Both the position numbers and the translations under genes were made by a program. A model generated the notes under the pieces. That model was given only the letters and a program-made list of their open reading frames with translations. It was not told the DNA's origin and did not search any database. Below, piece after piece: positions 3,845 to 15,810 of a DNA stretch of 20,000 nucleotides (within the stretch, counting starts at the first letter, position 1; each line of letters begins with the position of its first letter). The DNA is from an uncultured virus (IMG/VR IMGVR_UViG_3300006621_000005) (Duplodnaviria > Heunggongvirae > Uroviricota > Caudoviricetes). The DNA lies in IMG/VR virus record IMGVR_UViG_3300006621_000005; one strand, written 5' to 3'.

Positions 3845-5348
3845 ATGGAGCTGAGTTTAACAGATAATAAGCAGTTTCTGCGTATTGATGANNGCGAGTG
3901 AGCTAGAACTAGAACAACTCAATATTACATTTAATCGCAGGATTGATAATTGGCGTTTTCATCCACTTGTAAAAAAGGGATTATGGGATGGCTATATCTC
4001 GTATATCAAAGATGATAAGTGGATTCCATCCGGACTTTGGAAAGAAGTAATGGATATGGCCAAGGCATATAAATATGATTTAAAAATGAATGGTGTTACT
4101 TCACTATTCGATCCAAGCGTAAAACAAGATGAGTTTGAATCATGGGCTAAAGACTACTTTGATGGACATGAACTAGAGCCAAGAGATTATCAACTTGAAG
4201 CAGCATATAATATCCTAAAATTTAGAAGATGTTTAAGTGAATTGGCAACATCNNNNNNNNNNNNNNNNNNNNNNNNNNNNNNNNNNNNNNNNNNNNNNNN
4301 NNNNNNNGGAAGGATATTACTTATTGTCCCAAACGTTTCGTTAGTTGTACAGGCCTCTGAGGACTTTATGGACTATAACTGGCGTAATGCAACGAATATT
4401 AAGGTACAACAAATTTATTCTGGGCAAAAGATTAGACCAGGTAGAAACATGGTGATAGGTACGTATCAATCTCTTGTTAAGAAAGACAAAGAATACTTTG
4501 AGCAATTTGATGCTGTAATTATTGATGAGACTCACAAGGCTAAGTCTACCTCTATTAAAACTATTCTACAAAAATGTACTGCGGCAAACTATCGATTTGG
4601 ACTCTCGGGGACAATTCCAAAACCAAAGACGTTAGATAGATTAACCTTAATGGCACATACAGGCCCTGTAATTACAGAGGTCAATGCGGCATTCCTTCAA
4701 GATGAGGGTCATATTGCAGGTTGTAATGTGAAAGTAATAAAAATGGATTATGCACCTCAGAGCACAAAGAATGCTTTTTATGAGATGTCCCAAAACAGAT
4801 ATGAAAGTAAAGACGTTTTCAGATTTGAAAGTAATTATGTCATCAATTCAACAGGGCGTTTGGCTTTCATTTGCAACATTATTTCCAGAGTACGTGGGAA
4901 TAGCCTTGTTCTTTTCCACCGAATCGAACACGGCAAAAGAATTTATGAGAAACTGCGCCAAGATAGTGACAAACCCATCTATTATGTGGACGGTAATACC
5001 GACAAGGACATCCGTGAAGAATACAAGAAGAAGATGGAAGCAGGTGCGCAGGTTGTCATTGTTGCCTCTTATGGTACGTTCTCAACAGGGATCTCGATTA
5101 AGAAAATACATAACATCTTCTTTACCGAATCGTTTAAATCGGAAGTCATAATTAGACAATCAATCGGTAGAGGGCTAAGAAAACACCATACAAAATCAGA
5201 GGTAAATATTATTGATTTTGTAGATGACTTATCATCACCAGATTGGGATAACTATCTTATTAGACATGCCAAAGCTCGTCAAAAGATCTATAAGGAGCAG
5301 AAGTTCCCATTTGAGGTAAAAAATGTAACTTTTGACGGTGATATATAA
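3845..5348 (+). CDS. uvsW: SF2 DNA helicase UvsW
   Basis: WDGYI, PRDYQ (Q motif), DETH (Walker B), GLSGT, ASYGTFSTGISIK, QSIGRGLR. The true start is the ATG at 3845 (MELSLTDNKQFLRIDE); the NN at 3892-3893 adds one base and shifts the frame. Walker A is largely hidden in the N gap 4253-4307. Confidence 0.92.
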
Positions 5349-5384: not shown

Positions 5385-7025
5385 ATGGGTTCATTAAAAC
5401 TACAATCTTTTGAAGATTTCGCTAATGCTTCTGCTGAAGCAGCAAAGATGAAATTAGAAGAAGAACAAAAAGCAGCTCGTACAGAGTCAGCTTATCAATT
5501 CGAAACATTATTATCTGAGTTCGGCGTTACATCTGTAAAAGATTTAAACGAAGAAGACAGAAACAAATTTTTTGCTAAGCTAGGTACTTCTGAAGTATCT
5601 GAGTCTTTAGCAGTTATCGAGGAAGGTACCAGATCACAAGTTGGTATTATTTCTAAAAGAGGAAAAATAGAGTCAGTGTATATGCACTACGATGGTTATC
5701 CAGACCACATGTTACCTACAATTAAGAAAGGTTACATGAACTCCGGAACAGTTAAGTTTTTACTTAAGAAAGGGGGTGGCTCAGGTTTGGAAGCAGATCC
5801 AAGTAAGATTAATTTCTACGGAGATAAAACAACTCTAAAAGGTGACGCTAAGAAAATCGACGATTATATTTCTGATGCTAGCGATAGAGCAGGAGCAGAA
5901 TTCGTTTACCTATTTGATGAAAGAGATGGCAAATGGTATATGGCAGATGTATATGGAGATAAAGAATTAATTCCAGCATTTGAGTCACTAATTATTAATG
6001 AAGCATTTAAACCAAGTAAAGGTAATGCAAGAGACGCTAAGAAAGTTTCGAAGTTTTTGAACACATTCTTCATGAAGCATTCTGCAATTGCAAACTCTGA
6101 TAGCTTTTTAGGTGCTTGTAGATACCTATTAGCTGAAGCCCTAACTGACGCTAACTTCCACTCATATAGAGATCCGGTAAGTAAAGCACTTGGTGGTAAG
6201 ATTGCTACTATTATGGTAGAAATTGATAACCTAGGTGGTATGGCAATTCCAGTTGGTAAGAAAACAATCCTTAACCTATTAGATGAACATTACTCTGGTC
6301 TAGCTAATGCAGCTGGATGGTCAGGTNNTTGGTATCGTTGAAGGTATGGCATTATTCTTAGATGGATTTGGTTATTCTCAACCAGCACAAAAGATCGTAG
6401 ATGCATTTGAATTAATCTGGGCTAATGAGTCTGTGATGAATGAAGGTAATGCTTTCTTAGCTGCAAGAGCTAAAGCAATTGAAGAAGATGCAGCAGAGTT
6501 TGAATTCAACGGTAAAACTTATCCTGTAATTAAAGAGGAAGTTGAACTAGAAGAAGGAAATGAATTTGGTGCTGCAAGAGCAAAAGCTATCGCAGATGGA
6601 GAAGATGAATTTGAAGTTGATGGTGAGAAATACCCAGTAACTAAAGTTGACAAAGAAGATAAAGAAAACGCTGAAGAATTTGTTGAAGAAGCTGAAGAAG
6701 AAGTTGAAGAAGGTAATGCCTTCGGTGCTGCAAGAGCAGAAGCAATTGCAAAAGGCGAAAAGACTTTTAAAGTTGGCGATGAAGAGTATGACGTAGAAGA
6801 CGTTGATGCTGATGACAAAGAGAACGCAGAAGAATTTGTAGAAGAAGCTGAAGAGGTTTCTGAAGCAGAAGTAAAATCGGATGAAGACTTTAAAGAGTAT
6901 GCATTNNNNNNNNNNNNNNNNNNNNNNNNNNNNNNNNNNNNNNNNNNNNNNNNNNNNNNNNNNNNNNNNNNNNNNNNNNTGACTATGGTGCAGCAGTTGG
7001 TGCATTACAATCATCATTAGGATAA
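5385..7025 (+). CDS. Putative capsid-internal/core polyprotein (single gene; split by assembly gaps in the track)
   Basis: The track ORFs 5385-6341 and 6307-7020 join if the NN at 6327-6328 is one base (AAGWSG-I-GIVEGMA). After the N gap 6906-6979 the natural ending is DYGAAVGALQSSLG-stop at 6981-7025. Features: N-terminal SFEDF targeting-like peptide, linkers ESLAVIEE, ESLIINE and ESVMNE, an embedded GTRS...YMHYDGYP domain, three EGNxFxAARAxAI repeats and Glu-rich tracts. Confidence 0.7.
6442..6860 (+). repeat. Three in-frame copies of an EGN(A/E)FxAARA(K/E)AI...F(E/K)(F/V)xG(K/E/D)xYxV module
   Basis: Copies begin at about 6442, 6553 and 6709. Copies 2 and 3 form a 156-nt (52 aa) tandem duplication that includes DKENAEEFVEEAEE. 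Confidence 0.85.
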
Positions 7026-7044: not shown

Positions 7045-8304
7045 ATGAAGAAACTATTTACATTTAAAGAATTCTTAAACGAAAAAGTCCAGGTAAACAA
7101 CTTGGACAATTTCGTATTTGAAGGTGGGGCTGCTGGCCACATGATGCATCCATTCGATGACCACTCATTAACATTTGCTGATTTCAAAACTATTGTAAGA
7201 TCTGCTCTACAAGGAGGTCTTGATTTTGAAGAGACTCCAACTGAAAAGACAGATGGCCAGAATGTATTTGCAACTGTAAAGGATGGTAAAGCAATGTTCG
7301 CTAGAAATAAGGGACAATTAGCAAACCCACTCGACTTAAATGGTATTATTAAGATGTTCACTGGCCACGCTTCAAAGCTGGTTGAAGAAACATTCATCTT
7401 TGCTGCTAAAGATCTAGCAGAAGCGCTACCAAAGCTTAAGGACCAATCTGTATTCATGGATGGTAACTCATTTATCAACATGGAGCTCATTTACTCTAAG
7501 AATCCTAATGTAATCTATTATGACAGAGATGTTATTCAATTCCACGGTATGAAAGTTACTGATGGNNNNNNNNNNNNNNNNNNNNNNNNNNNNNNNNNNN
7601 NNNNNNNNNNNNNNNNNNNNNNNGATGTGCAAAAGACCTTTACAATAATTCCCCCTCAAATTTTAAAGCTAGGAAAAGATATTAACTTTGATGAGAGAGT
7701 CGGCTATTACGAAAAGGCGATAGATAAACTAAGAGATACTTATAGTCTATCAGATCAAGATGAGGTTAAAATGTATCACGAGGCTTGGTGGAGAAACCAA
7801 ATCGAAGAGAACTTTGGGGATTTAGACCCAGCATTAAAAGAGGGACTTTTATTAAGATGGGCATATTTAGATAAGAAGACTCTAAATATGAGAGAGTTAA
7901 AGAAGGCAGTTACTCCAGAACAAGCAAAAGCCGTCAAAGATTTTGATGGTCAAAGAAACAAGAAGTATAAAGAAAACATTCTACCTTTCGAAAACCTATT
8001 TTTAGAATTAGGTGCAGATGTTTTAAAGAACGTTTCTAATTTTGTTGCCGCTAATCCAGAAGCTGAGAAGGCAAGATTACATAAGCAGATTAGAACTGAG
8101 GCTGATAAGGTTAAAAAGAATGGCGATCTAAAACAGATCGAGAAGGTAGAAAAAGAATTAAAGAGACTAGAAGGTATTGGCGGTATTGAATCAATCATTC
8201 CAACAGAAGGTTTAGTCTTTAAATACAATGGTAAAACATTCAAGTTAACTGGAACTTTTGCCGCTATTAACCAGTTAATGGGTATTATTAAATACGGTAG
8301 ATAA
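7045..8304 (+). CDS. ATP-dependent ligase-fold (RNA-ligase-like) nucleotidyltransferase with capsid-targeting-like N-terminus
   Basis: Motif I EKTDG, III-like NMELI, IV EGLVFK, V FKLTG; N-terminus MKKLFTFKEFLNE; conserved-looking EGGAAGHMMHPFD. Contains the N gap 7566-7623. Confidence 0.7.
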   Translation: MKKLFTFKEFLNEKVQVNNLDNFVFEGGAAGHMMHPFDDHSLTFADFKTIVRSALQGGLDFEETPTEKTDGQNVFATVKDGKAMFARNKGQLANPLDLNGIIKMFTGHASKLVEETFIFAAKDLAEALPKLKDQSVFMDGNSFINMELIYSKNPNVIYYDRDVIQFHGMKVTDXXXXXXXXXXXXXXXXXXXXDVQKTFTIIPPQILKLGKDINFDERVGYYEKAIDKLRDTYSLSDQDEVKMYHEAWWRNQIEENFGDLDPALKEGLLLRWAYLDKKTLNMRELKKAVTPEQAKAVKDFDGQRNKKYKENILPFENLFLELGADVLKNVSNFVAANPEAEKARLHKQIRTEADKVKKNGDLKQIEKVEKELKRLEGIGGIESIIPTEGLVFKYNGKTFKLTGTFAAINQLMGIIKYGR

Positions 8305-8313
8305 TAAACAATT

Positions 8314-10173
8314 ATGGCATTACAAAACTTAAAAACATATTTCGAAGGAGCTAACACTGCAGACGTTGATAAACTTCTCAACCACAAATGTATTGTGACA
8401 GAGAAAATTAACGGCTCATCTTTTCATGCAAGAAGACAAGGTACTGATTTTGCGTACTACAAATCTGGTTCAAAGCAACAGATGGATATAGTAGACCGTA
8501 CAATTGTCAGATATTATGAGAATGCAATTCGCCACTTTAAATCAGTTTCTAAAGATGTTATAGAGGATATGCCATTTGACTGGAAATTCGGATTTGAATA
8601 TTTAGGTGATAATAAAACAATTGATGTTGAGTACGATATTTTACCAGAATCAAATTTAATATTAACACATATACAAGTTTTACAACCATCTAATCCTAAT
8701 AAAGTTAGAAAGGTAATTAGAGATAGTAAGATACTTAATAAGTGGGCAGACAAACTAGGTGTTACAAAACCACCTATATTATTTGAAGGCTTACTTGACT
8801 CTGGCCAAAAAGACAGGTTAAAACAAATTCTTGCAATGTCAATTAATGAATTTGAACAGACGTTTGAAGACTTTGAAAAGCCATCTTTTACAAGAACATT
8901 ATTCGGCATCTTCAATGAGAATATGAAGCAGTCTGCTTTAATGAATGATCTTTCAAAAGACGTTGCAGGGTTTATTGTTAATTTTCATGACGGAACAGAA
9001 TTACAATCTTTTAAATTAGAGAAGTTTAATAAAAAACCGATGGATCCAAGAAAACCATCAGATATGTATCAAATTACAATTTTAGATGTTGTAGAACATT
9101 TATCACAATTTGATTTTTCATCAATAGAATTAAAAGAGGAAAATGCTGATAGAAGATATTTAGAATTAATGTCATCTATTTTTAATAATTATGTAGAAAA
9201 AAATGCTACAAAATATATTGGAGCTAAATTTGACTCTGCTGATTTTTCTGAATCTCCAATGTTTGAATTAAACCACAAGTTTATTCAAAATGAAAAGACA
9301 CTTACTTTAGTACAAGATAAAATTTTATCTGAGTTATTTAAGATCGTACTAGGCTCTTTTAGAAAAAAGAGAACTAAAGAAACAGATCTTATTAATAAAG
9401 ATTTAATGGAGCAAATCAACGAGATTGTTGAAACTATTGAAGGTTTAATAATGGCAAAATCAAATGAATCAGATGTAATGAATTTTAAAAAATATTTATT
9501 AAATCAAAAAATTTCAGCTCAAGTTAGTCCAATTATGGAAGGCTTAACTGTAAAATACAAAAACCAAGGTAAGAAGCCTGTAAATATGTTTGTTGGTAGA
9601 TTCCAGCCATTTACATTAGGCCATGCTAAAGTTATTGAAACTATCTATAAACAAAATGGTTATCCTGTAGTTATCTTTTTAATTAAGTCTAAGACTAAGA
9701 AAGCCGAAGATGCGTTTAAAAGACCTTACGATGAAGATACTCAATTATCAATGTTACAAAAATTAAAGTCTTCATATCCAATTGAAGATGTAAAGATTTT
9801 ACCTACTGCAGCAATTGATAAAATGTTTAACGAATTAAGACCACAATACGAACCAGTATTATGGGGAACTGGAACTGATAGAATGAAAGTTTATAGCTAT
9901 CAAGCAGATAAACAAGAATATAGAGACGATTTAGGTGTAAGAGATGATTTTGGTTTATTTGAAATTCCAAGATCAGGTAAGAATATCTCAGCCACTCAGG
10001 TTAGAAACGCAATGCTGGATAGTGATGAAAAACTATTTAAAAAATTAACTCCTAAAGACATACATGGTATGTATGGAGAACTAAAAATGAAATTAGAAGA
10101 CTCGATGGGTGTTGCTGCAGAATCTGCACAACCAGAATTCCTAACCTTCGATGATTTTTTGAAGAATATATAA
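8314..10173 (+). CDS. Fusion: ligase-fold N-domain + HIGH-type (cytidylyl/NMN adenylyltransferase-like) C-domain
   Basis: N-domain VTEKINGSS (motif I), with a degenerate motif IV (AGFIV) and FKL. C-domain GRFQPFTLGH (HxGH variant), GTDR and ISATQVR, typical of the CTP_transf-like/NMNAT family. The C-terminal FLTFDDFLKN resembles the targeting peptide. Confidence 0.75.
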   Translation: MALQNLKTYFEGANTADVDKLLNHKCIVTEKINGSSFHARRQGTDFAYYKSGSKQQMDIVDRTIVRYYENAIRHFKSVSKDVIEDMPFDWKFGFEYLGDNKTIDVEYDILPESNLILTHIQVLQPSNPNKVRKVIRDSKILNKWADKLGVTKPPILFEGLLDSGQKDRLKQILAMSINEFEQTFEDFEKPSFTRTLFGIFNENMKQSALMNDLSKDVAGFIVNFHDGTELQSFKLEKFNKKPMDPRKPSDMYQITILDVVEHLSQFDFSSIELKEENADRRYLELMSSIFNNYVEKNATKYIGAKFDSADFSESPMFELNHKFIQNEKTLTLVQDKILSELFKIVLGSFRKKRTKETDLINKDLMEQINEIVETIEGLIMAKSNESDVMNFKKYLLNQKISAQVSPIMEGLTVKYKNQGKKPVNMFVGRFQPFTLGHAKVIETIYKQNGYPVVIFLIKSKTKKAEDAFKRPYDEDTQLSMLQKLKSSYPIEDVKILPTAAIDKMFNELRPQYEPVLWGTGTDRMKVYSYQADKQEYRDDLGVRDDFGLFEIPRSGKNISATQVRNAMLDSDEKLFKKLTPKDIHGMYGELKMKLEDSMGVAAESAQPEFLTFDDFLKNI

Positions 10174-10192: not shown

Positions 10193-10591
10193 ATGAAAAA
10201 TATAAAAACATTCGAAGACTTTAGAGATTCAGTAAATGAGTCTATTCAATTCGGTTCTTATTATTATAGCACTAGAACAGCATTTGGCGAGCATAGTGAC
10301 AACCTACCACAAAAAGGCGATACAAAGTATTTAGTATTTGCTCATAATGAAGTAGACTTCTATGGTCAAAGAATTAGATTAGAAGCAGGCACTACTTTGG
10401 GTGGTCCAGGTTCAAAACAACATATTGGTATTTTTGACGATGAGGCTTCTGCAGCAGAAGCATATAAGACTGCTATGAAAAAACCAGAAGGTGTATTACT
10501 TTCATTTTCAATGGGAACGCTTTACGCAAAGTCTAAATTCGCGTTTCAATATGAAGAAACACAGGGTAAACTAGCAAAAATTAAAGCATAA
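10193..10591 (+). CDS. Putative capsid-internal protein (132 aa)
   Basis: N-terminus MKNIKTFEDFRDSVNE resembles the T4 internal-protein capsid targeting sequence (IPIII MKTYQEFIAE); AATATATAAA motif at 10165 upstream. Confidence 0.65.
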   Translation: MKNIKTFEDFRDSVNESIQFGSYYYSTRTAFGEHSDNLPQKGDTKYLVFAHNEVDFYGQRIRLEAGTTLGGPGSKQHIGIFDDEASAAEAYKTAMKKPEGVLLSFSMGTLYAKSKFAFQYEETQGKLAKIKA

Positions 10592-10593
10592 TC

Positions 10594-13314
10594 ATGAAAA
10601 ACTTCGAAGACTTTTTATCGGAAGGCAAGAAACTGCAAATCAAAAGAAAATACACAGAGAACCACCCTGCTCAAACTGTAGGTAAAACTGCTAATGTAAG
10701 AAACGCAGTTCTACAAGCTATCAAAGATGGTGTGGTGACAAGAGAAGAGTTTAATAAGATTCTTTCTGAATTATCTTCTAGTGCAAATCAATGGGCTTCT
10801 AGAAATAGAAAGTATTTCAATGTTTCGGAAGAAGGTATTAAACTTTCAAAGTGGGGTCGTAGAATTCTAGCTGAACTAGATGAAACTCCTAAAGCTGCTG
10901 AGATTAACGAGAAGCTTAAGGTGACTAAAGATAAATGGCCTTATATTGAAATCAAAGATGGTGGTAAAAAGTATCAAATAGAATTTGATGACTATGATGT
11001 TATTGACGATCACGGTAATGAAGGTAAAGATCTTTATTTTATGGGCTATGACCAAAATGGTGATATGTGGGAAATTGATGTCTATGCAGATTATAGAGAT
11101 GAAGTACAAGATATTCATTATGATACTTTAACAAAAGTAGATGAATCAGTAGTTACAGAAAAAGTTAGTTTTGCTCAAATGAAAAAAGATAGTAAAACTA
11201 AAGAGTATAAAGAAGTTTCAAATGCACTCCGCGATGATACAGAAGAGGTTTCAGATATTTGGAATATGTTAGATCCTAAAATGTTTAAATTTACAGAAAG
11301 TGAATTTGAAGATATATTCGATGAGTGGTGGAATACACAGTCATACGATAGTCTTGAAGATTTTTGTAGAAACGGAAGCTTTGAAGACACGCATTCATTA
11401 TATAAACACTTATTGCCATACGTTGTTGAATCTGTAGTTACTGAAAGTGTTGTATATAACAGTAGTAATACAAAACCATCTGCTGCTAAAAACGCTGAAA
11501 AAGAATTTGGGCATTTATTACCTAAACCAAATAAAGGCATTAAACCTTATGTATTTGCAGTAATAAAAACTCCCCGTAGAAATTATAGATTAGCTATTAA
11601 GTCTGGGTCTTACATTGCACATGAGTTCCTTTCAAAGCTTGGAGAGGATAGAATATTAACTGCAGATGATGTGAAGAACGCAGTAAATCATATTATTAGA
11701 CTTAATCCAGATGAATTTAATGAATCTGTAGTTACTGAAGCAAAATTTGTAAAAGACTTTGATAAAGCAGTTCTAGATGCTGAGACAGAAAAAGATGTTT
11801 TAAAAGTATATCCTAAAGCTGAATTTTATGTAGGTAAAATGTCACATTTCTTTGGAGAACTAGAACCAAACTTATTCTTTAAAGCTTATTATGCTAAATA
11901 CTATAAACAAGATACTGGTAAATCAATCAAAGGTGACTTTAAAATCACTACAGTCTACTCAGAAAAAGGTAGCAAATATGTAAACCTATATTTAGAAGAA
12001 TCTGTAGTTACTGAAAACTATGAAGTAATCTATAGCGATGGTATTTCTCAGATGAAAAAATTCAGAAGAGAAACACAAGCTATTGATTTCATGAAAAAAG
12101 AAATAGCTTCTAATAAGAAATTAAGAGATATTGCAGTCTATAAACCAGGTATGCATTCAACTACTCAAACTGAATTAGTTGTTAAATTCTGGGGAGAAGG
12201 ATCTTACTTAGATAATGTTTCTAAAAGAGATAAAGATTTAGCTGCTAAAAAATTACAAGAAAATACTGATATGGAAAATGAAATAAATTTATTCGAATCA
12301 TTTAGCGACTTCGTTGGTGCTAACTTTCTTAACGAGGCAATTAAATCATCTATTTTAAGAACAGTTTTATCAAACGGTAGAGAGGGTAAAGAAGCTAAGA
12401 AAAATCTTTCTAATTTAGCTAAAGGTTTTTACAACCTATCTAAAGTAGCTCTTGATAAAATCGAAGATGAAGACTTTATTGTTAGTAATGACGTATCAAA
12501 GGTATTCAAAAACTACGGCGGCTCAAGCCACGTACTTTTCTTTATCTCAGATAACGAGAAAGAAAATCCATACTATGACCATAACAACGGATCATGGAAT
12601 GACTATAAAATGGTTCCAGGTGGAGGTATTATATTAGCAGCTATGTCTGGTGACAGACAGTTCTATGCTAATGAATGGTCAAGATGGTCAGGTGGTAGAG
12701 CTTGGTCTAAGAATAAAAAAGGTGATGCAGACCAAATAGGTATCAACCACAAATACAGAGGTTGGGGCGCATCGGGTCTTAACAACGGTAAGAGAATTGC
12801 AGAGATGTCTGATAGAGTTATTGTTATTAACCTAGAACTAATTAGACAAAAGTATTCTACTCAACAATTGAGAGATGCAAGAGCAGCAGCTAAAGCAGAT
12901 GCAACGGCATTCAAATCTGATAAAGACTTTAGAGATGCTAACAAAAATAGATACCACAAGATCTTAGCTGATAAAGCAGCAAGCTTACCACTGGATAAAA
13001 TGGTATCAGATGCTATCGATAAACTGGCTAAACAAATCTCAGATGGTTTAAAGAAAGGTGAGAAGACTAGATACCAAGAAATTAAAATTGGTGAATCTCC
13101 AAAAGGTAAAGAAGTAAAAGCAAAAGATGCATCTCAACACATGTCAAATATTTTAGATGACTATGCTAGATATGTAGATTACATTAGACAGGCAGAAGAA
13201 TCTGAAGCTAGATATGGTGAAAGAGAATCTTACTACGAAAGAGAGTCTAAGAACTATGCAAAAAACATTAAAGAAAGAATAAACAAGATCGATAGTTTCG
13301 ACTACGCTTGGTAA
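10594..13314 (+). CDS. Modular capsid-internal polyprotein (906 aa) with four ESVVTE linkers
   Basis: N-terminal MKNFEDFLSE; possible winged-helix first module (..IKLSKWGRRIL); EINE linker near 10900; ESVVTE at 11143, 11428, 11722 and 11998; internal MENEINLFESFSDF...FLNE at 12271. Confidence 0.75.
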   Translation: MKNFEDFLSEGKKLQIKRKYTENHPAQTVGKTANVRNAVLQAIKDGVVTREEFNKILSELSSSANQWASRNRKYFNVSEEGIKLSKWGRRILAELDETPKAAEINEKLKVTKDKWPYIEIKDGGKKYQIEFDDYDVIDDHGNEGKDLYFMGYDQNGDMWEIDVYADYRDEVQDIHYDTLTKVDESVVTEKVSFAQMKKDSKTKEYKEVSNALRDDTEEVSDIWNMLDPKMFKFTESEFEDIFDEWWNTQSYDSLEDFCRNGSFEDTHSLYKHLLPYVVESVVTESVVYNSSNTKPSAAKNAEKEFGHLLPKPNKGIKPYVFAVIKTPRRNYRLAIKSGSYIAHEFLSKLGEDRILTADDVKNAVNHIIRLNPDEFNESVVTEAKFVKDFDKAVLDAETEKDVLKVYPKAEFYVGKMSHFFGELEPNLFFKAYYAKYYKQDTGKSIKGDFKITTVYSEKGSKYVNLYLEESVVTENYEVIYSDGISQMKKFRRETQAIDFMKKEIASNKKLRDIAVYKPGMHSTTQTELVVKFWGEGSYLDNVSKRDKDLAAKKLQENTDMENEINLFESFSDFVGANFLNEAIKSSILRTVLSNGREGKEAKKNLSNLAKGFYNLSKVALDKIEDEDFIVSNDVSKVFKNYGGSSHVLFFISDNEKENPYYDHNNGSWNDYKMVPGGGIILAAMSGDRQFYANEWSRWSGGRAWSKNKKGDADQIGINHKYRGWGASGLNNGKRIAEMSDRVIVINLELIRQKYSTQQLRDARAAAKADATAFKSDKDFRDANKNRYHKILADKAASLPLDKMVSDAIDKLAKQISDGLKKGEKTRYQEIKIGESPKGKEVKAKDASQHMSNILDDYARYVDYIRQAEESEARYGERESYYERESKNYAKNIKERINKIDSFDYAW
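11143..12015 (+). repeat. Array of four 18-bp direct repeats GAATC(T/A)GTAGTTAC(T/A)GAA separated by unique coding modules
   Basis: Copies at 11143-11160, 11428-11445, 11722-11739 and 11998-12015 (the last three identical); periods 285, 294 and 276 nt. Further copies at 15103-15120 and 15520-15537. Confidence 0.9.
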
Positions 13315-13331
13315 TATAACATAATAGAGAT

Positions 13332-13874
13332 ATGAAAAGAATTCCAACATTCGAACAATTTGTAAACGAGAAAGTATATAGACTTTCAGGTTACTATGCA
13401 CAAAAAGGTTTTTTAGGTAAAATCTTTCAAGCCTTTAAGAAGCAAATAGAAAAGGTTCAATATGAAGGTGATGGTGCAGGTACAATTGAAGAAGTCAACA
13501 AAGCATGGGAGAAGTTCCAAGATACTGCTAAGAAAATGATTTTAGATCAAGTTGAAAAAGCAGTTAAAGATATGGACAAAGTCCTTTATGTAACAGCAGA
13601 TTTCTCTAAATGGACCATTGATGAAGTAAACGGTCTTAATCAAGACGGTGGAAGTGAATTATACATTTCATTATTCGATGGAGATCTAATAATCAATGTA
13701 GGTTTTATGGATGACGTTGATGCATCTAAATACAAAAGAAAATTCGATAAAGAGGCATATAACAACTCGGCGATTGCATCAGATGACGATGTAATCTACG
13801 GTGAACTTTCTCCAGTAGGTGATAACAACCTAGAGCTAAGAGGCGGTGAAGTTATGTCAATTGACGCAAAGTAA
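13332..13874 (+). CDS. Putative capsid-internal protein (180 aa)
   Basis: N-terminus MKRIPTFEQFVNE is targeting-like and ends in V-x-E; the remainder is unrecognised. Confidence 0.65.
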   Translation: MKRIPTFEQFVNEKVYRLSGYYAQKGFLGKIFQAFKKQIEKVQYEGDGAGTIEEVNKAWEKFQDTAKKMILDQVEKAVKDMDKVLYVTADFSKWTIDEVNGLNQDGGSELYISLFDGDLIINVGFMDDVDASKYKRKFDKEAYNNSAIASDDDVIYGELSPVGDNNLELRGGEVMSIDAK

Positions 13875-13875
13875 T

Positions 13876-15810
13876 ATGCCATCTGTAAGTAAGTCACAAC
13901 AAAGATTAATGGGCATGGCATACGCTGTTAAATCTGGTGATATGGAAATCTCAGATATTGACCCAGCTTACAGAGATAAAGTAAAATCATTATCAGACGG
14001 AATGACAAAGAAAGACTTAAAGAAATACGCTTCAACAAAACATGATAATTTACCAGAGACGGTAGATGAATCAAGTTTCGAAGTAGGAGCTGGAAGAATA
14101 ACTCCTAGTGCCAACATCGGCGGTATGGGTCCTGTGGTTCTACCTTCTGATGGTGGTGTAGGTTCTGGTGATGTTCCTGCAGTTGCAGATATAGATGATG
14201 ACGAGGAAGAGTCTAAGAAAGACAAAACAAAAAAGAAATTAGAAATGGAGAACTTTAATCTATATACACAATTTAATTCATTTGTAAATGAATCACTTAA
14301 TGAAGCATTTAAGTTCGGTAAGAAAAATCAATACTCAATCGACGATGTAAATGAAGCCTATGGTTTCTGGGGTACATTAGAACTTGCAGGTTTTAAACGT
14401 AGAGAGATTGAAGATAACTGGCATTCTGCAATGGCATGGTTAACTGAATCTTACAAATTCTCTGATGCAGGTGCACTTTATTACTTAAATGCAAAAGCAG
14501 GTAGATGGATTGCAGACCAAGTTATTGAACAAAAAGGTAACAGAGATGTAGTTGATGTATTAGAAGATTATGCTACTCCAGCTGAATGGAAGAAGTGGTC
14601 AAAAGAGTATAACAAGTTTGCTCAAGAAGAAATGATGTCTGAATCAATGGACGAGGCTCTTTTAGAAAATGCTGTTAGAGATTTACATTTTGAAACAGAT
14701 CCTAAGAAGGCTGAAGACATGAAGATTGCAATCGGTGCTTCACAAGGAGAAGTTACAAGAAGAAAACAAATCGAAGGCGGCGAGTATTCATTAAGAAGAT
14801 TTAGAAAAGAAATTAAGTATGGTGATGGTAAAGACCTAGGAGTATTTCTTCCAGGTAGTTATGATGCTGCAACTTCTAAATTAGGAGATGGACCACATAA
14901 GAAAGCTGTTAAGAAAGTAAAATGGAATAGAAAGAAATATGACCAATGGCTTGAAGATGTTGCATCAAACGATGGTTGGAAGAACGCATTTGATATGGCA
15001 CAAAATGCTAAACACGAACCAGGTCTATTACAATGGGCTAAGAAAGAATTTAGAGGTGAAGATGTAATGCAAAGAATCCAATGGGATATTGAAGCTTTCG
15101 CAGAATCAGTAGTTACTGAGGCAAAAGCAGTAAAACGTTTTGATAAAAAACTTATAGACACTAATTTTCAAGTTCATCAAGAAGATACACTAAAAACAAT
15201 CTATAAAGGATTATCTGTTACTGTTGACTACGAAATCGAAAAAAAATGGCGCGAGCTAAAGGGTCTTGAAGAACTTCCGGAGGAATGGAGAGGACAGCAG
15301 ATAGGTAAAGTTTATCAACTAAAAAGAAATTTATATCTTTGGGTAAAAGATATGGAAGATACTAGAAATGGGCGTGCGGCTAGAGATGAGTTTGGTGATG
15401 CACTTTTTAATGTTATGTCAATTTTTACATTCGACGGCGACGAAATCGTTATATTATGGGAAAGACCAGCAAACTTTAAAGTAGCTACTTATGGTGGCCC
15501 TGGAGTTAATCTTCAATATGAATCTGTAGTTAACGAGAAGAAACTAGACAGAGATGATATGATAAAGTGGATTGAGAAGTATATGGACTTTGTAAGAACT
15601 ACTGAAGAGTTCAACGGTTCTCAGGGCGGTATCTGGGTTTCAGGTGAAAATATGGACGAGTATAAGGGTAGAGTAATTTATGACTACTACTCTGAAGACT
15701 ACAAGAACAGAACGTTTGGTGTAGATAACAAGTGGGAAAAGGAACTTAATAAAAAAGGATGGTATAGTGAATGGCATGACGCAGGCACATCCATGATTTG
15801 GCCACTATAA
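13876..15810 (+). CDS. Modular capsid-internal polyprotein (644 aa) with N-terminal DUF3008-like domain
   Basis: The ATG at 13876 follows the previous stop (preferred over 13846). MPSVSKSQQRLMGMAYAVKSG...LKKYASTKHDNLPE is DUF3008-like. Internal MENFNLYTQFNSFVNESLNE at 14245; linkers ESMDEALLE, ESVVTE (15103) and ESVVNE (15520). Confidence 0.72.
   Translation: MPSVSKSQQRLMGMAYAVKSGDMEISDIDPAYRDKVKSLSDGMTKKDLKKYASTKHDNLPETVDESSFEVGAGRITPSANIGGMGPVVLPSDGGVGSGDVPAVADIDDDEEESKKDKTKKKLEMENFNLYTQFNSFVNESLNEAFKFGKKNQYSIDDVNEAYGFWGTLELAGFKRREIEDNWHSAMAWLTESYKFSDAGALYYLNAKAGRWIADQVIEQKGNRDVVDVLEDYATPAEWKKWSKEYNKFAQEEMMSESMDEALLENAVRDLHFETDPKKAEDMKIAIGASQGEVTRRKQIEGGEYSLRRFRKEIKYGDGKDLGVFLPGSYDAATSKLGDGPHKKAVKKVKWNRKKYDQWLEDVASNDGWKNAFDMAQNAKHEPGLLQWAKKEFRGEDVMQRIQWDIEAFAESVVTEAKAVKRFDKKLIDTNFQVHQEDTLKTIYKGLSVTVDYEIEKKWRELKGLEELPEEWRGQQIGKVYQLKRNLYLWVKDMEDTRNGRAARDEFGDALFNVMSIFTFDGDEIVILWERPANFKVATYGGPGVNLQYESVVNEKKLDRDDMIKWIEKYMDFVRTTEEFNGSQGGIWVSGENMDEYKGRVIYDYYSEDYKNRTFGVDNKWEKELNKKGWYSEWHDAGTSMIWPL

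Follow-up and report, generated by a model that had tools for sequence, protein, structure and literature searches.

A stretch of 20,000 nucleotides from an uncultured member of the Caudoviricetes (IMG/VR record IMGVR_UViG_3300006621_000005), referred to here in its full length as the window, contains between positions 10594 and 15810 two genes in which unrelated protein modules are strung together by copies of one short coding repeat. The window has a G+C content of about 34% and carries T4-type replication genes, namely gp32, primase and UvsW. Relatives of the region were found in 58 viral loci, several of them from the same contigs, and the relatives' genomes are about 280-300 kb according to CheckV completeness estimates. 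The sequencing runs containing the stretch are labelled as marine metagenomes and come from nine studies; RNA runs contain only 6-12% of the sampled words and do not bear on expression. A phage collection gave no DNA match to the region, and the nearest record in it (G001) does not span it. A gp21 homologue had been assumed in the original prediction, and S77 (gp21-type) proteases are encoded in 4 of the 5 long contigs of relatives; the closest long relative has, in order, the portal gene, a protease fused to an acidic scaffold (PF03420, E 1.4e-12) and a capsid protein of the gp23 family (PF07068, E 1e-46). We assign the region to a giant phage of marine origin, as yet uncultured, that has replication and head genes of T4 type.

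The repeat is the 18-mer GAATCTGTAGTTACTGAA, which occurs on the + strand in three exact copies and three variants with two or three mismatches (Table 1). Six matches of this type were observed in the window against 0.03 expected, and none of 200 shuffled sequences reached six. All copies are in frame, four of them in the open reading frame (ORF) 10594-13314 and two in the ORF ending at 15810, and they encode ESVVTE five times and ESVVNE once, with the Val-Val pair written GTA-GTT in six of six. The spacing is 285, 294 and 276 nt, then 417 nt between the two copies of the second ORF, with 290 nt from the last copy to the stop. These positions, frames and spacings, the location in two genes and the uniform GTA-GTT had all been described in the original prediction and were reproduced in the sequence. 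The modules between the repeats had been called mutually unrelated, and this held: among the 13 window modules an all-against-all BLASTP comparison found no significant similarity, the top pair reaching only E 0.004 across 38 residues.

Linker-bearing genes of the relatives fall into at least three classes (A, B and C), and some phages have further polyproteins; the two repeat-bearing genes of the window represent classes B and C. The 906-aa class B product consists of seven segments, unrelated domains in one polypeptide, and its orthologues in 28 loci differ in module content. All ORFs of relatives with the pattern E[ST]V[VI].E are on the gene strand, and a count of the repeat beyond the window gave 13 matches to a degenerate linker DNA pattern in 563 kb of contigs from five relatives, versus 0 for the reversed control. 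Decayed linkers (ESAVTE, ESSVTE, ESIVTE and ESVVIE) show single-base differences from the consensus DNA. Splitting 124 ORFs at E-[SEAN]-x-x-x-E yielded 407 segments, comprising 46 families and 63 singletons. Distinct architectures numbered 26 in 30 ORFs of class A, 21 in 34 of class B and 17 in 29 of class C, counts that are upper bounds, some ORFs ending at contig ends.

Modules are also shared between classes. Family F8 lies in class B in the window and in class A, the upstream gene, in nine other loci; F6 is common to classes A and B, and F23 to classes B and C. In L042, L047 and L048, module F7a is also the last, C-terminal module of another polyprotein. Module F16 is about 85% identical, at both DNA and protein level, in the different polyprotein of L038-L042, where backbone DNA is about 67% and the class B core 36% identical, which points to lateral cassette transfer. 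In another locus (L014, 4250-6385) whole cassettes are tandemly duplicated, each with its own linker, and SLSGIEFGNDDD... is found twice.

Breakpoints were defined as internal endpoints of BLASTN alignments of the loci against the window over 10624-15780, and were counted for a linker if no more than 12 nt from it. At the six linkers lie 73 of the 216 DNA breakpoints, against 4.9% expected, the endpoints not being mutually independent. The only stretches uncovered by any locus, 11164-11702 and 15123-15518, correspond to three window-specific cassettes, designated u95, u98 and u139.

Natural variants were sought in contigs of four public marine runs, data that give no frequencies; the uncovered parts of the stretch in runs X8 and X9 were left out of the reading. 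A 1410-nt contig of run X9 with about 92% identity to the window passes directly from 11427 to 11722, leaving out 294 nt, exactly u98 plus one linker, with 18 nt at the joint fitting both sides. In run X3 a contig at depth 208 passes from F7b through 17 other letters to linker 4, without u95, u98 and F8, and a window-like contig at depth 200 is present in the same run. A contig of run X1 departs from the window 9 nt after linker 5 and returns at the first base of linker 6. Loose contig ends were seen at four positions listed in Table 1 and at 15530, and two loose ends run on into modules of other loci, namely the end of F38 and the start of F23. Variation of module content and order with breakpoints at the repeat, which had been anticipated, was borne out by the 58 loci, their alignment endpoints and the metagenome joints. 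The 18-bp linker is the junction for cassette gain, loss, duplication and transfer, both among genes and among phages and always in frame, and this cassette genetics is well supported.

Table 1. Coordinates of the array genes, modules, linkers and related features in the window (HSP, high-scoring segment pair; X1, X3 and X9, public marine sequencing runs)
Feature	Position	Strand	Description
Class A polyprotein	5385..7020	+	F2 core and three GNAF..AARA repeats; linker variant ESVMNE
Small gene	10193..10591	+	132 aa; targeting-like start MKNIKTFEDFRDSVNE
Class B polyprotein gene	10594..13314	+	906 aa; targeting peptide, six modules, internal targeting-like propeptide, conserved C-terminal core
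N-terminal capsid-targeting-like peptide	10594..10623	+	MKNFEDFLSE; presumed cut after Glu
Module F7a	10624..10911	+	Ends in short junction AAEINE (10894-10911); conserved in class B
Module F7b	10912..11142	+	68% identical in L001/L002 vs 93-94% for flanking modules there
Linker 1	11143..11160	+	ESVVTE (GAATCAGTAGTTACAGAA), 2 mismatches; 16 HSP endpoints; loose contig end at 11143
Cassette u95	11161..11427	+	Absent from all 58 loci
Linker 2	11428..11445	+	ESVVTE, exact 18-mer; run X9 joint 11427 to 11722 within repeat
Cassette u98	11446..11721	+	Absent from all 58 loci
Linker 3	11722..11739	+	ESVVTE, exact 18-mer; 14 HSP endpoints; loose ends 11717, 11745
Cassette F8 (AKFVKDFDK...)	11740..11997	+	Most widely shared module; 27 further ORFs
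Linker 4	11998..12015	+	ESVVTE, exact 18-mer; 12 HSP endpoints; run X3 joint 11131 to 11998; run X9 loose end 12015
Cassette F16 (NYEVIYSDG...)	12016..12270	+	Also in different 885-aa polyprotein of L038-L042
Internal targeting-like propeptide	12271..12336	+	MENEINLFESFSDFVGANFLNE
Class B core F1	12337..13311	+	Conserved; 125 homologues
Single-module internal-protein-like gene	13332..13874	+	180 aa, starts MKRIPTFEQFVNE; 19 matches in loci
Class C polyprotein gene	13876..15810	+	DUF3008, Gly-rich/acidic stretch, internal targeting-like peptide, module, core F0, cassette, terminal module
Class C internal targeting-like peptide	14245-14304	+	Look-alike of targeting peptide
Class C module	14305-14667	+	Only phrog_8020 match (14305-14673)
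Class C core F0	14668-15102	+	
Linker 5	15103..15120	+	ESVVTE (GAATCAGTAGTTACTGAG), 2 mismatches; 19 HSP endpoints
Cassette u139	15121..15519	+	Absent from all 58 loci
Linker 6	15520..15537	+	ESVVNE (GAATCTGTAGTTAACGAG), 3 mismatches; 12 HSP endpoints; run X1 contig rejoins here
Terminal module F11 of class C	15538..15807	+	24 matches in loci

The window-specific cassettes were searched for among 1.84 billion representative proteins (E up to 0.001). With u95 and u98 this returned 29 proteins, most matching a single cassette and 4 of the 29 having two matched stretches. The carriers are 81-1531 aa long with up to 11 strict linkers; the 1531-aa carrier has 11 strict and 15 relaxed linkers and 16 segments, and 16, as in P0128, is also the upper limit of the segment count. 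Cassette u95 stands alone behind a targeting peptide in P0140, P0138, P0147 and P0148 and is embedded in other carriers, while u98 stands alone in P0146, P0150 and P0151 and is embedded elsewhere, being tandemly duplicated in P0124. The small carriers are composed of a targeting-like peptide and one module: P0140 (105 aa) starts with MKHVRLFEQFVSE, followed by KTSFSQMKK. In both forms the first residue of the module after Glu is the same (FVSE/KTSFSQMKK stand-alone, VVTE/KVSFAQMKK in the window, the slash following Glu). The F0 module behaves likewise, its start GKFDGIADL following a targeting peptide in P0124 and a linker in P0142. Cassette u139 was found in 9 further proteins and is flanked by ESVVTE linkers in all four carriers read (P0156, P0159 and P0161 in full, P0155 as a cut record); P0159 ends in a class-B-type core.

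Searching each module separately, as had been proposed, had a divided outcome: u95 and u98 were found both stand-alone and within other polyproteins, and u139 in other polyproteins, and no family or fold match was obtained. Pfam (E up to 1) and PHROG (E up to 0.1) scans of every module gave only phrog_8020, whose function is unassigned, and DUF3008. Modelled alone, F8 is a compact alpha/beta domain (pLDDT 89.3, pTM 0.80) in which the last four linker residues have pLDDT below 50; its best Foldseek match has E 0.32, and its best VIA match, with Z 4.5 (Ugi-2, a BLIP-like protein and YidC), is not significant. The class B core was modelled with pLDDT 81.6, and its best Foldseek matches have E 0.29 in the PDB, to papain-like proteins, and 0.042 in BFVD. 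In the alignment of the core no Cys or His is invariant. The best VIA match of the core (Z 8.9) covers the helical tail only and is generic, and a search of the ESM Atlas with u98 gave no usable match.

The protein encoded at 10594 begins with MKNFEDFLSE, and T4 IPIII and IPII both begin with MKTYQEFIAE; the two peptides are identical at positions 1, 2, 7 and 10 and similar at 4, 5, 6 and 8. As described in PMC9026906, capsid-targeting sequence (CTS) peptides of 10-19 aa load the T4 internal proteins (IPs), CTS residues 4 and 7 are important for targeting, 8 and 10 for processing, and gp21 cuts after Glu at L/I-X-E. Of 465 unique gene-strand ORFs, 66 matched a regular expression for the targeting peptide within their N-terminal 30 residues, whereas the remaining 168,278 residues gave only 22 matches and 44 opposite-strand ORFs none. 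In the window the expression matches the genes at 7045 (MKKLFTFKEFLNE), 10594 and 13332, which are thereby predicted to encode N-terminal capsid-targeting peptides as in the T4 IPs. Looser look-alikes belong to the genes at 5385 and 10193, and internal ones are located at 12271-12336 and 14245-14304. The claim of one targeting peptide per gene agrees with the sequence of the first polyprotein gene, with its IPII/IPIII-like start, and does not agree with that of the second, which has an internal look-alike only.

The targeting peptides end in (L/V)-x-E and the linkers in V-(T/N)-E. The P1' residue after the linker Glu is Ala (24), Lys (13), Ser (6) or Gly (5) at 48 of 53 sites. In a close relative (L061 1426-3339, L064 3-929) the S77 protease forms one protein with a scaffold-like tail and a long, repetitive region of extreme acidity, and this acidic region contains several V-N-E, V-T-E and I-N-E sites. 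A stretch of the class C protein (14119-14172, GGMGPVVLPSDGGVGSGD) resembles LAGMGDTAFPTSTANGSGD, found immediately ahead of the gp23 domain in the capsid protein of a relative (L064 1042-2436); the likeness is weak (9 of 25 residues identical, pairwise E 0.002), and the stretch might be a second way to bind the prohead core.

Conservation of the linker at the DNA level, also claimed in the original prediction, was assessed from 53 linker sites that differ in their 78-nt context. GTA is the first Val codon at 50 of 53 sites, GTT the second at 48 of 50, and Thr is ACT at 23 of 24, while Ser (TCA 35, TCT 17) and Asn (AAT 17, AAC 12) vary and all six combinations of Ser codon and codon 5 are present. 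Background Val in the same genes is GTT at a fraction of 0.49 and GTA at 0.44, and of the 490 Val-Val pairs found outside linkers, 97 (19.8%) read GTAGTT. Counted once per flanking module-family pair, GTAGTT occurs in 39 of 44 linker contexts, exceeding codon and codon-pair bias. The information content is about 0 right outside the 18 bp. In invariant core-domain columns the major-codon fraction is 0.47-0.79, just two of these columns being Val (0.47 and 0.69), and the control at the orthologous F0-end junction comprises 6 versions, 87% identical. Out-of-frame stops as the cause of GTA-GTT were rejected, as GTT-GTA gives stops too and the stop-less AAC is common. The linker Val-Val codons are held at GTA-GTT beyond protein need. 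Microhomology for in-frame exchange best fits the joint with 18 shared bases.

In the mechanism proposed here, a T4-like capsid-targeting peptide (MKNFEDFLSE and its look-alikes) would bring the chain into the prohead core. The chain would be a string of independently folding, mutually unrelated modules of 60-140 aa joined by ESVV(T/N)E, the V-x-E end of which would fit the (L/I)-x-E-then-cut rule of gp21-type prohead proteases. The protease would cut after each linker Glu, and the released modules would remain with the DNA and be ejected together with it. The arrays would then probably be IP-like, head-internal proteins encoded as polyproteins, cut at the linkers, packaged and ejected, with cassettes exchanged at the 18-bp junction; within this reading, the protease-cut and head-loaded part is what we infer to be the most likely mechanism. 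A counter-defence role of the freed modules, as for T4 IPI, is a guess by analogy, the reported role of IPI (PMC3012670) being its sole basis. There is a real possibility, falling somewhat short of probable, that the 18 bp are read twice, as a protease site separating cargo and as a frame-preserving crossover kept at silent sites, in a clade-wide trade of virion-delivered proteins from an in-ORF magazine with a single targeting peptide.

Several observations weigh against the polyprotein reading. Position P3 of the linker is Val, not the Leu/Ile of T4, the protease of the window's own phage is predicted from its relatives, the class C gene has an internal look-alike and no N-terminal targeting peptide, and no module has a recognisable family or fold in the scans and fold searches. 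The polyprotein cluster adjoins replication genes, and the T4-type late promoter motif has one match in the window (4068) versus 2.56 by chance, none near the cluster. As to exchange at the repeat, the remaining 143 of 216 breakpoints mark other junctions (about 10900 at AAEINE, 12260-12290, 14070-14100, 14290-14300 and 14650-14680), the ends of genes or a mere fading of similarity. The enrichment is weaker in protein alignments, where 17% of HSP starts and 30% of ends fall within 10 aa of a relaxed linker, versus 7.7% at random. No sign of within-genome homogenisation was seen at the variable linker positions (p 0.43, 0.36), homologous recombination usually needs more than 18 bp, and the window shows no recombinase.

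The data consist entirely of metagenome contigs, and chimeras assembled at the repeated 18-mer could in principle mimic variable architectures, but this is extremely improbable: 18 bp is below usual assembly k-mers, identical architectures recur across different IMG/VR records (L003/L004, L020-L022, L025/L026/L028), and independent protein databases give the same picture. It is rather doubtful that the silent-site conservation reflects a constraint on mRNA or translation, such as a codon pair at a domain boundary, with breakpoints gathering at linkers merely where chimeras stay functional. Such a constraint would suit the free variation of Ser and Asn beside fixed GTA-GTT and ACT, the occurrence of all the Ser by codon-5 combinations and the lack of homogenisation, a pattern that points to site-specific selection, and that we read as particular bases being selected and not just copied recently. 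Elsewhere, however, Val-Val pairs lack the GTA-GTT preference, and one natural joint shares 18 nt, as exchange within the repeat predicts.

Ordinary multidomain proteins that stay uncut, with ESVVxE as a flexible linker and shuffling as in any mosaic phage protein, seem decidedly unlikely. The low confidence of the last four linker residues in the F8 model is that of any linker and would suit them, as would the position among replication genes, but the linker ends in hydrophobic-x-Glu like the targeting peptides, the same modules occur as small genes behind a T4-like targeting peptide with the same start residue, P1' is Ala, Lys, Ser or Gly at most sites, and a gp21-type protease is encoded in the clade. 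Even with cutting and packaging of the chains, the modules could still be structural or DNA-packing proteins (inner body or scaffold accessories) and neither ejected effectors nor anti-defence proteins, which we consider unlikely. No module matches a defence-related family, a T4 IPIII mutant is reported to affect head assembly (PMC9026906), and phiKZ-like phages are described as packing large masses of processed internal proteins (PMC5694885). Against this stands the extreme turnover, with 63 singletons among 407 segments, differing sets in close relatives and variants coexisting in one sample; by an argument from pattern only, it looks like arms-race cargo rather than structure.

The closest known counterparts of the putative head-loaded arrays are the T4 proteins IPI, IPII, IPIII and Alt, which have an N-terminal peptide of the same form, ending in hydrophobic-x-Glu. 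The T4 IPs are unrelated to one another, and they too are small, diverse, fast-evolving cargo in a clade with a gp21-family protease. They are encoded as one protein per gene, whereas here there are up to about 16 modules per ORF and a stereotyped 6-residue linker, with Val at P3, in an array known from sequence alone. No family in common with the T4 IPs appeared in the Pfam (E up to 1) and PHROG (E up to 0.1) scans. In integrons, an ordered array of unrelated cassettes is bounded by a repeated site, with gain, loss and reshuffling there. Integron cassettes are separate genes, whereas those of the window are parts of one reading frame; no integrase was found among the 19 window ORFs scanned, and the 18-mer in the window has no attC-like features. 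The description of the arrays as integron-like applies to gain, loss and reshuffling at the repeat and does not extend to an integrase or att-type site, so that it is an analogy only.

PeSL cassettes of T4-type phages are reportedly also the subject of Comeau et al. 2014. As in the window, short conserved motifs flank variable units in these cassettes, and recombination deletes, inserts and moves the units (Arbiol et al. 2010, PMC2839356). The PeSL motifs are described as intergenic promoter/stem-loop elements flanking whole ORFans (PMC2839356), whereas the window has an 18-bp in-frame coding repeat, presumed to be a protease site; crossover within the repeat, as indicated by joints and breakpoints, is common to both, and the intergenic promoter/stem-loop character is absent here.

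Polyvalent proteins likewise combine many unrelated domains in one polypeptide that is presumably packaged and delivered (Iyer et al. 2017, PMC5512222), and their authors themselves compare them to viral polyproteins (PMC5512222). They are described as having known enzymatic domains and embedded peptidases, mostly zincin-like (PMC5512222). The window modules differ in being small and in having uniform release sites that would fit a protease acting in trans, and in Pfam the chains show no peptidase or other domain except DUF3008, which sets them apart from polyvalent proteins. A DNA-conserved junction, as in the window arrays, does not figure in the available account of polyvalent proteins (PMC5512222). 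In the giant phages phiKZ, 201phi2-1 and SPN3US a gp21-related protease processes many head proteins, cutting behind the Glu of a 3-residue motif, and some propeptides are long with several sites (PMC5694885). The phiKZ-type motif is (S/A/G)-x-E, and what is described is propeptide removal from individual proteins, not arrays of interchangeable modules with one linker (PMC5694885). The original prediction held the arrangement to be undescribed, and no description of phage in-frame cassette arrays with protease-site linkers was found in the full-text literature searched, of which subscription journals are largely not a part.

If the chains are cut and packaged, one targeting peptide would load into the particle an arbitrary, fast-changing set of small proteins that enter the cell with the DNA. 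The concept of T4 internal proteins, which covers a few genes, would then widen to combinatorial arrays of large size, and a large unannotated ocean reservoir of candidate early-acting phage proteins would be implied, with 125 core homologues among the matches listed alone. The junction offers a testable case of a sequence selected for its protein role and, possibly, for recombination, and a natural plug-and-play design of this kind could guide the loading of several cargos into T4-type capsids.

Further details concern the individual genes. In class B, DNA breakpoints gather at the end of F7a (about 10890-10910), where one extra module is inserted in L001. The class B core is a separate gene in L038, L047 and L048, the match to the window core starting about 118 residues in. 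The homologues of F1 are hypothetical wherever named, except for two labelled ribosomal protein L22, and two entries list 'tara' among their sources. For the class C gene a GTG start at 13846 was set aside, ATG 13876 (MPSVSK...) being the most likely start.

The class A polyprotein reads as two ORFs, a masked NN at 6327-6328 interrupting the frame. Its region 6307-7020 contains three tandem units of 36-46 aa (EGNAF/EF-x-AARAKAI...F-x-V/F) with acidic runs between them. Class A genes of relatives carry ESVV(T/N)E linkers and the F6 and F8 cassettes. The masked N runs of the window (3892-3893, 4253-4307, 6327-6328, 6906-6979 and 7566-7623) amount to 191 bases, and none lies within 10594-15810.

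Between the class A and class B genes, the 419-aa protein of 7045-8304, with the targeting-like start given above, contains EKTDGQN, and in the 619-aa protein of 8314-10173 EKINGSS is found together with a cytidylyltransferase-like domain at the C terminus (PF01467, E 2.7e-8). Their K-x-(D/N)-G strings recall what we take to be ligase motif I, and the two products could be enzymes packaged into the head. Just downstream of the class C gene, the segment 15820-15906 has matches in several loci in both orientations at 78-89% identity (L001, L018, L019, L020 twice and L057), and it looks like a repeated intergenic element.

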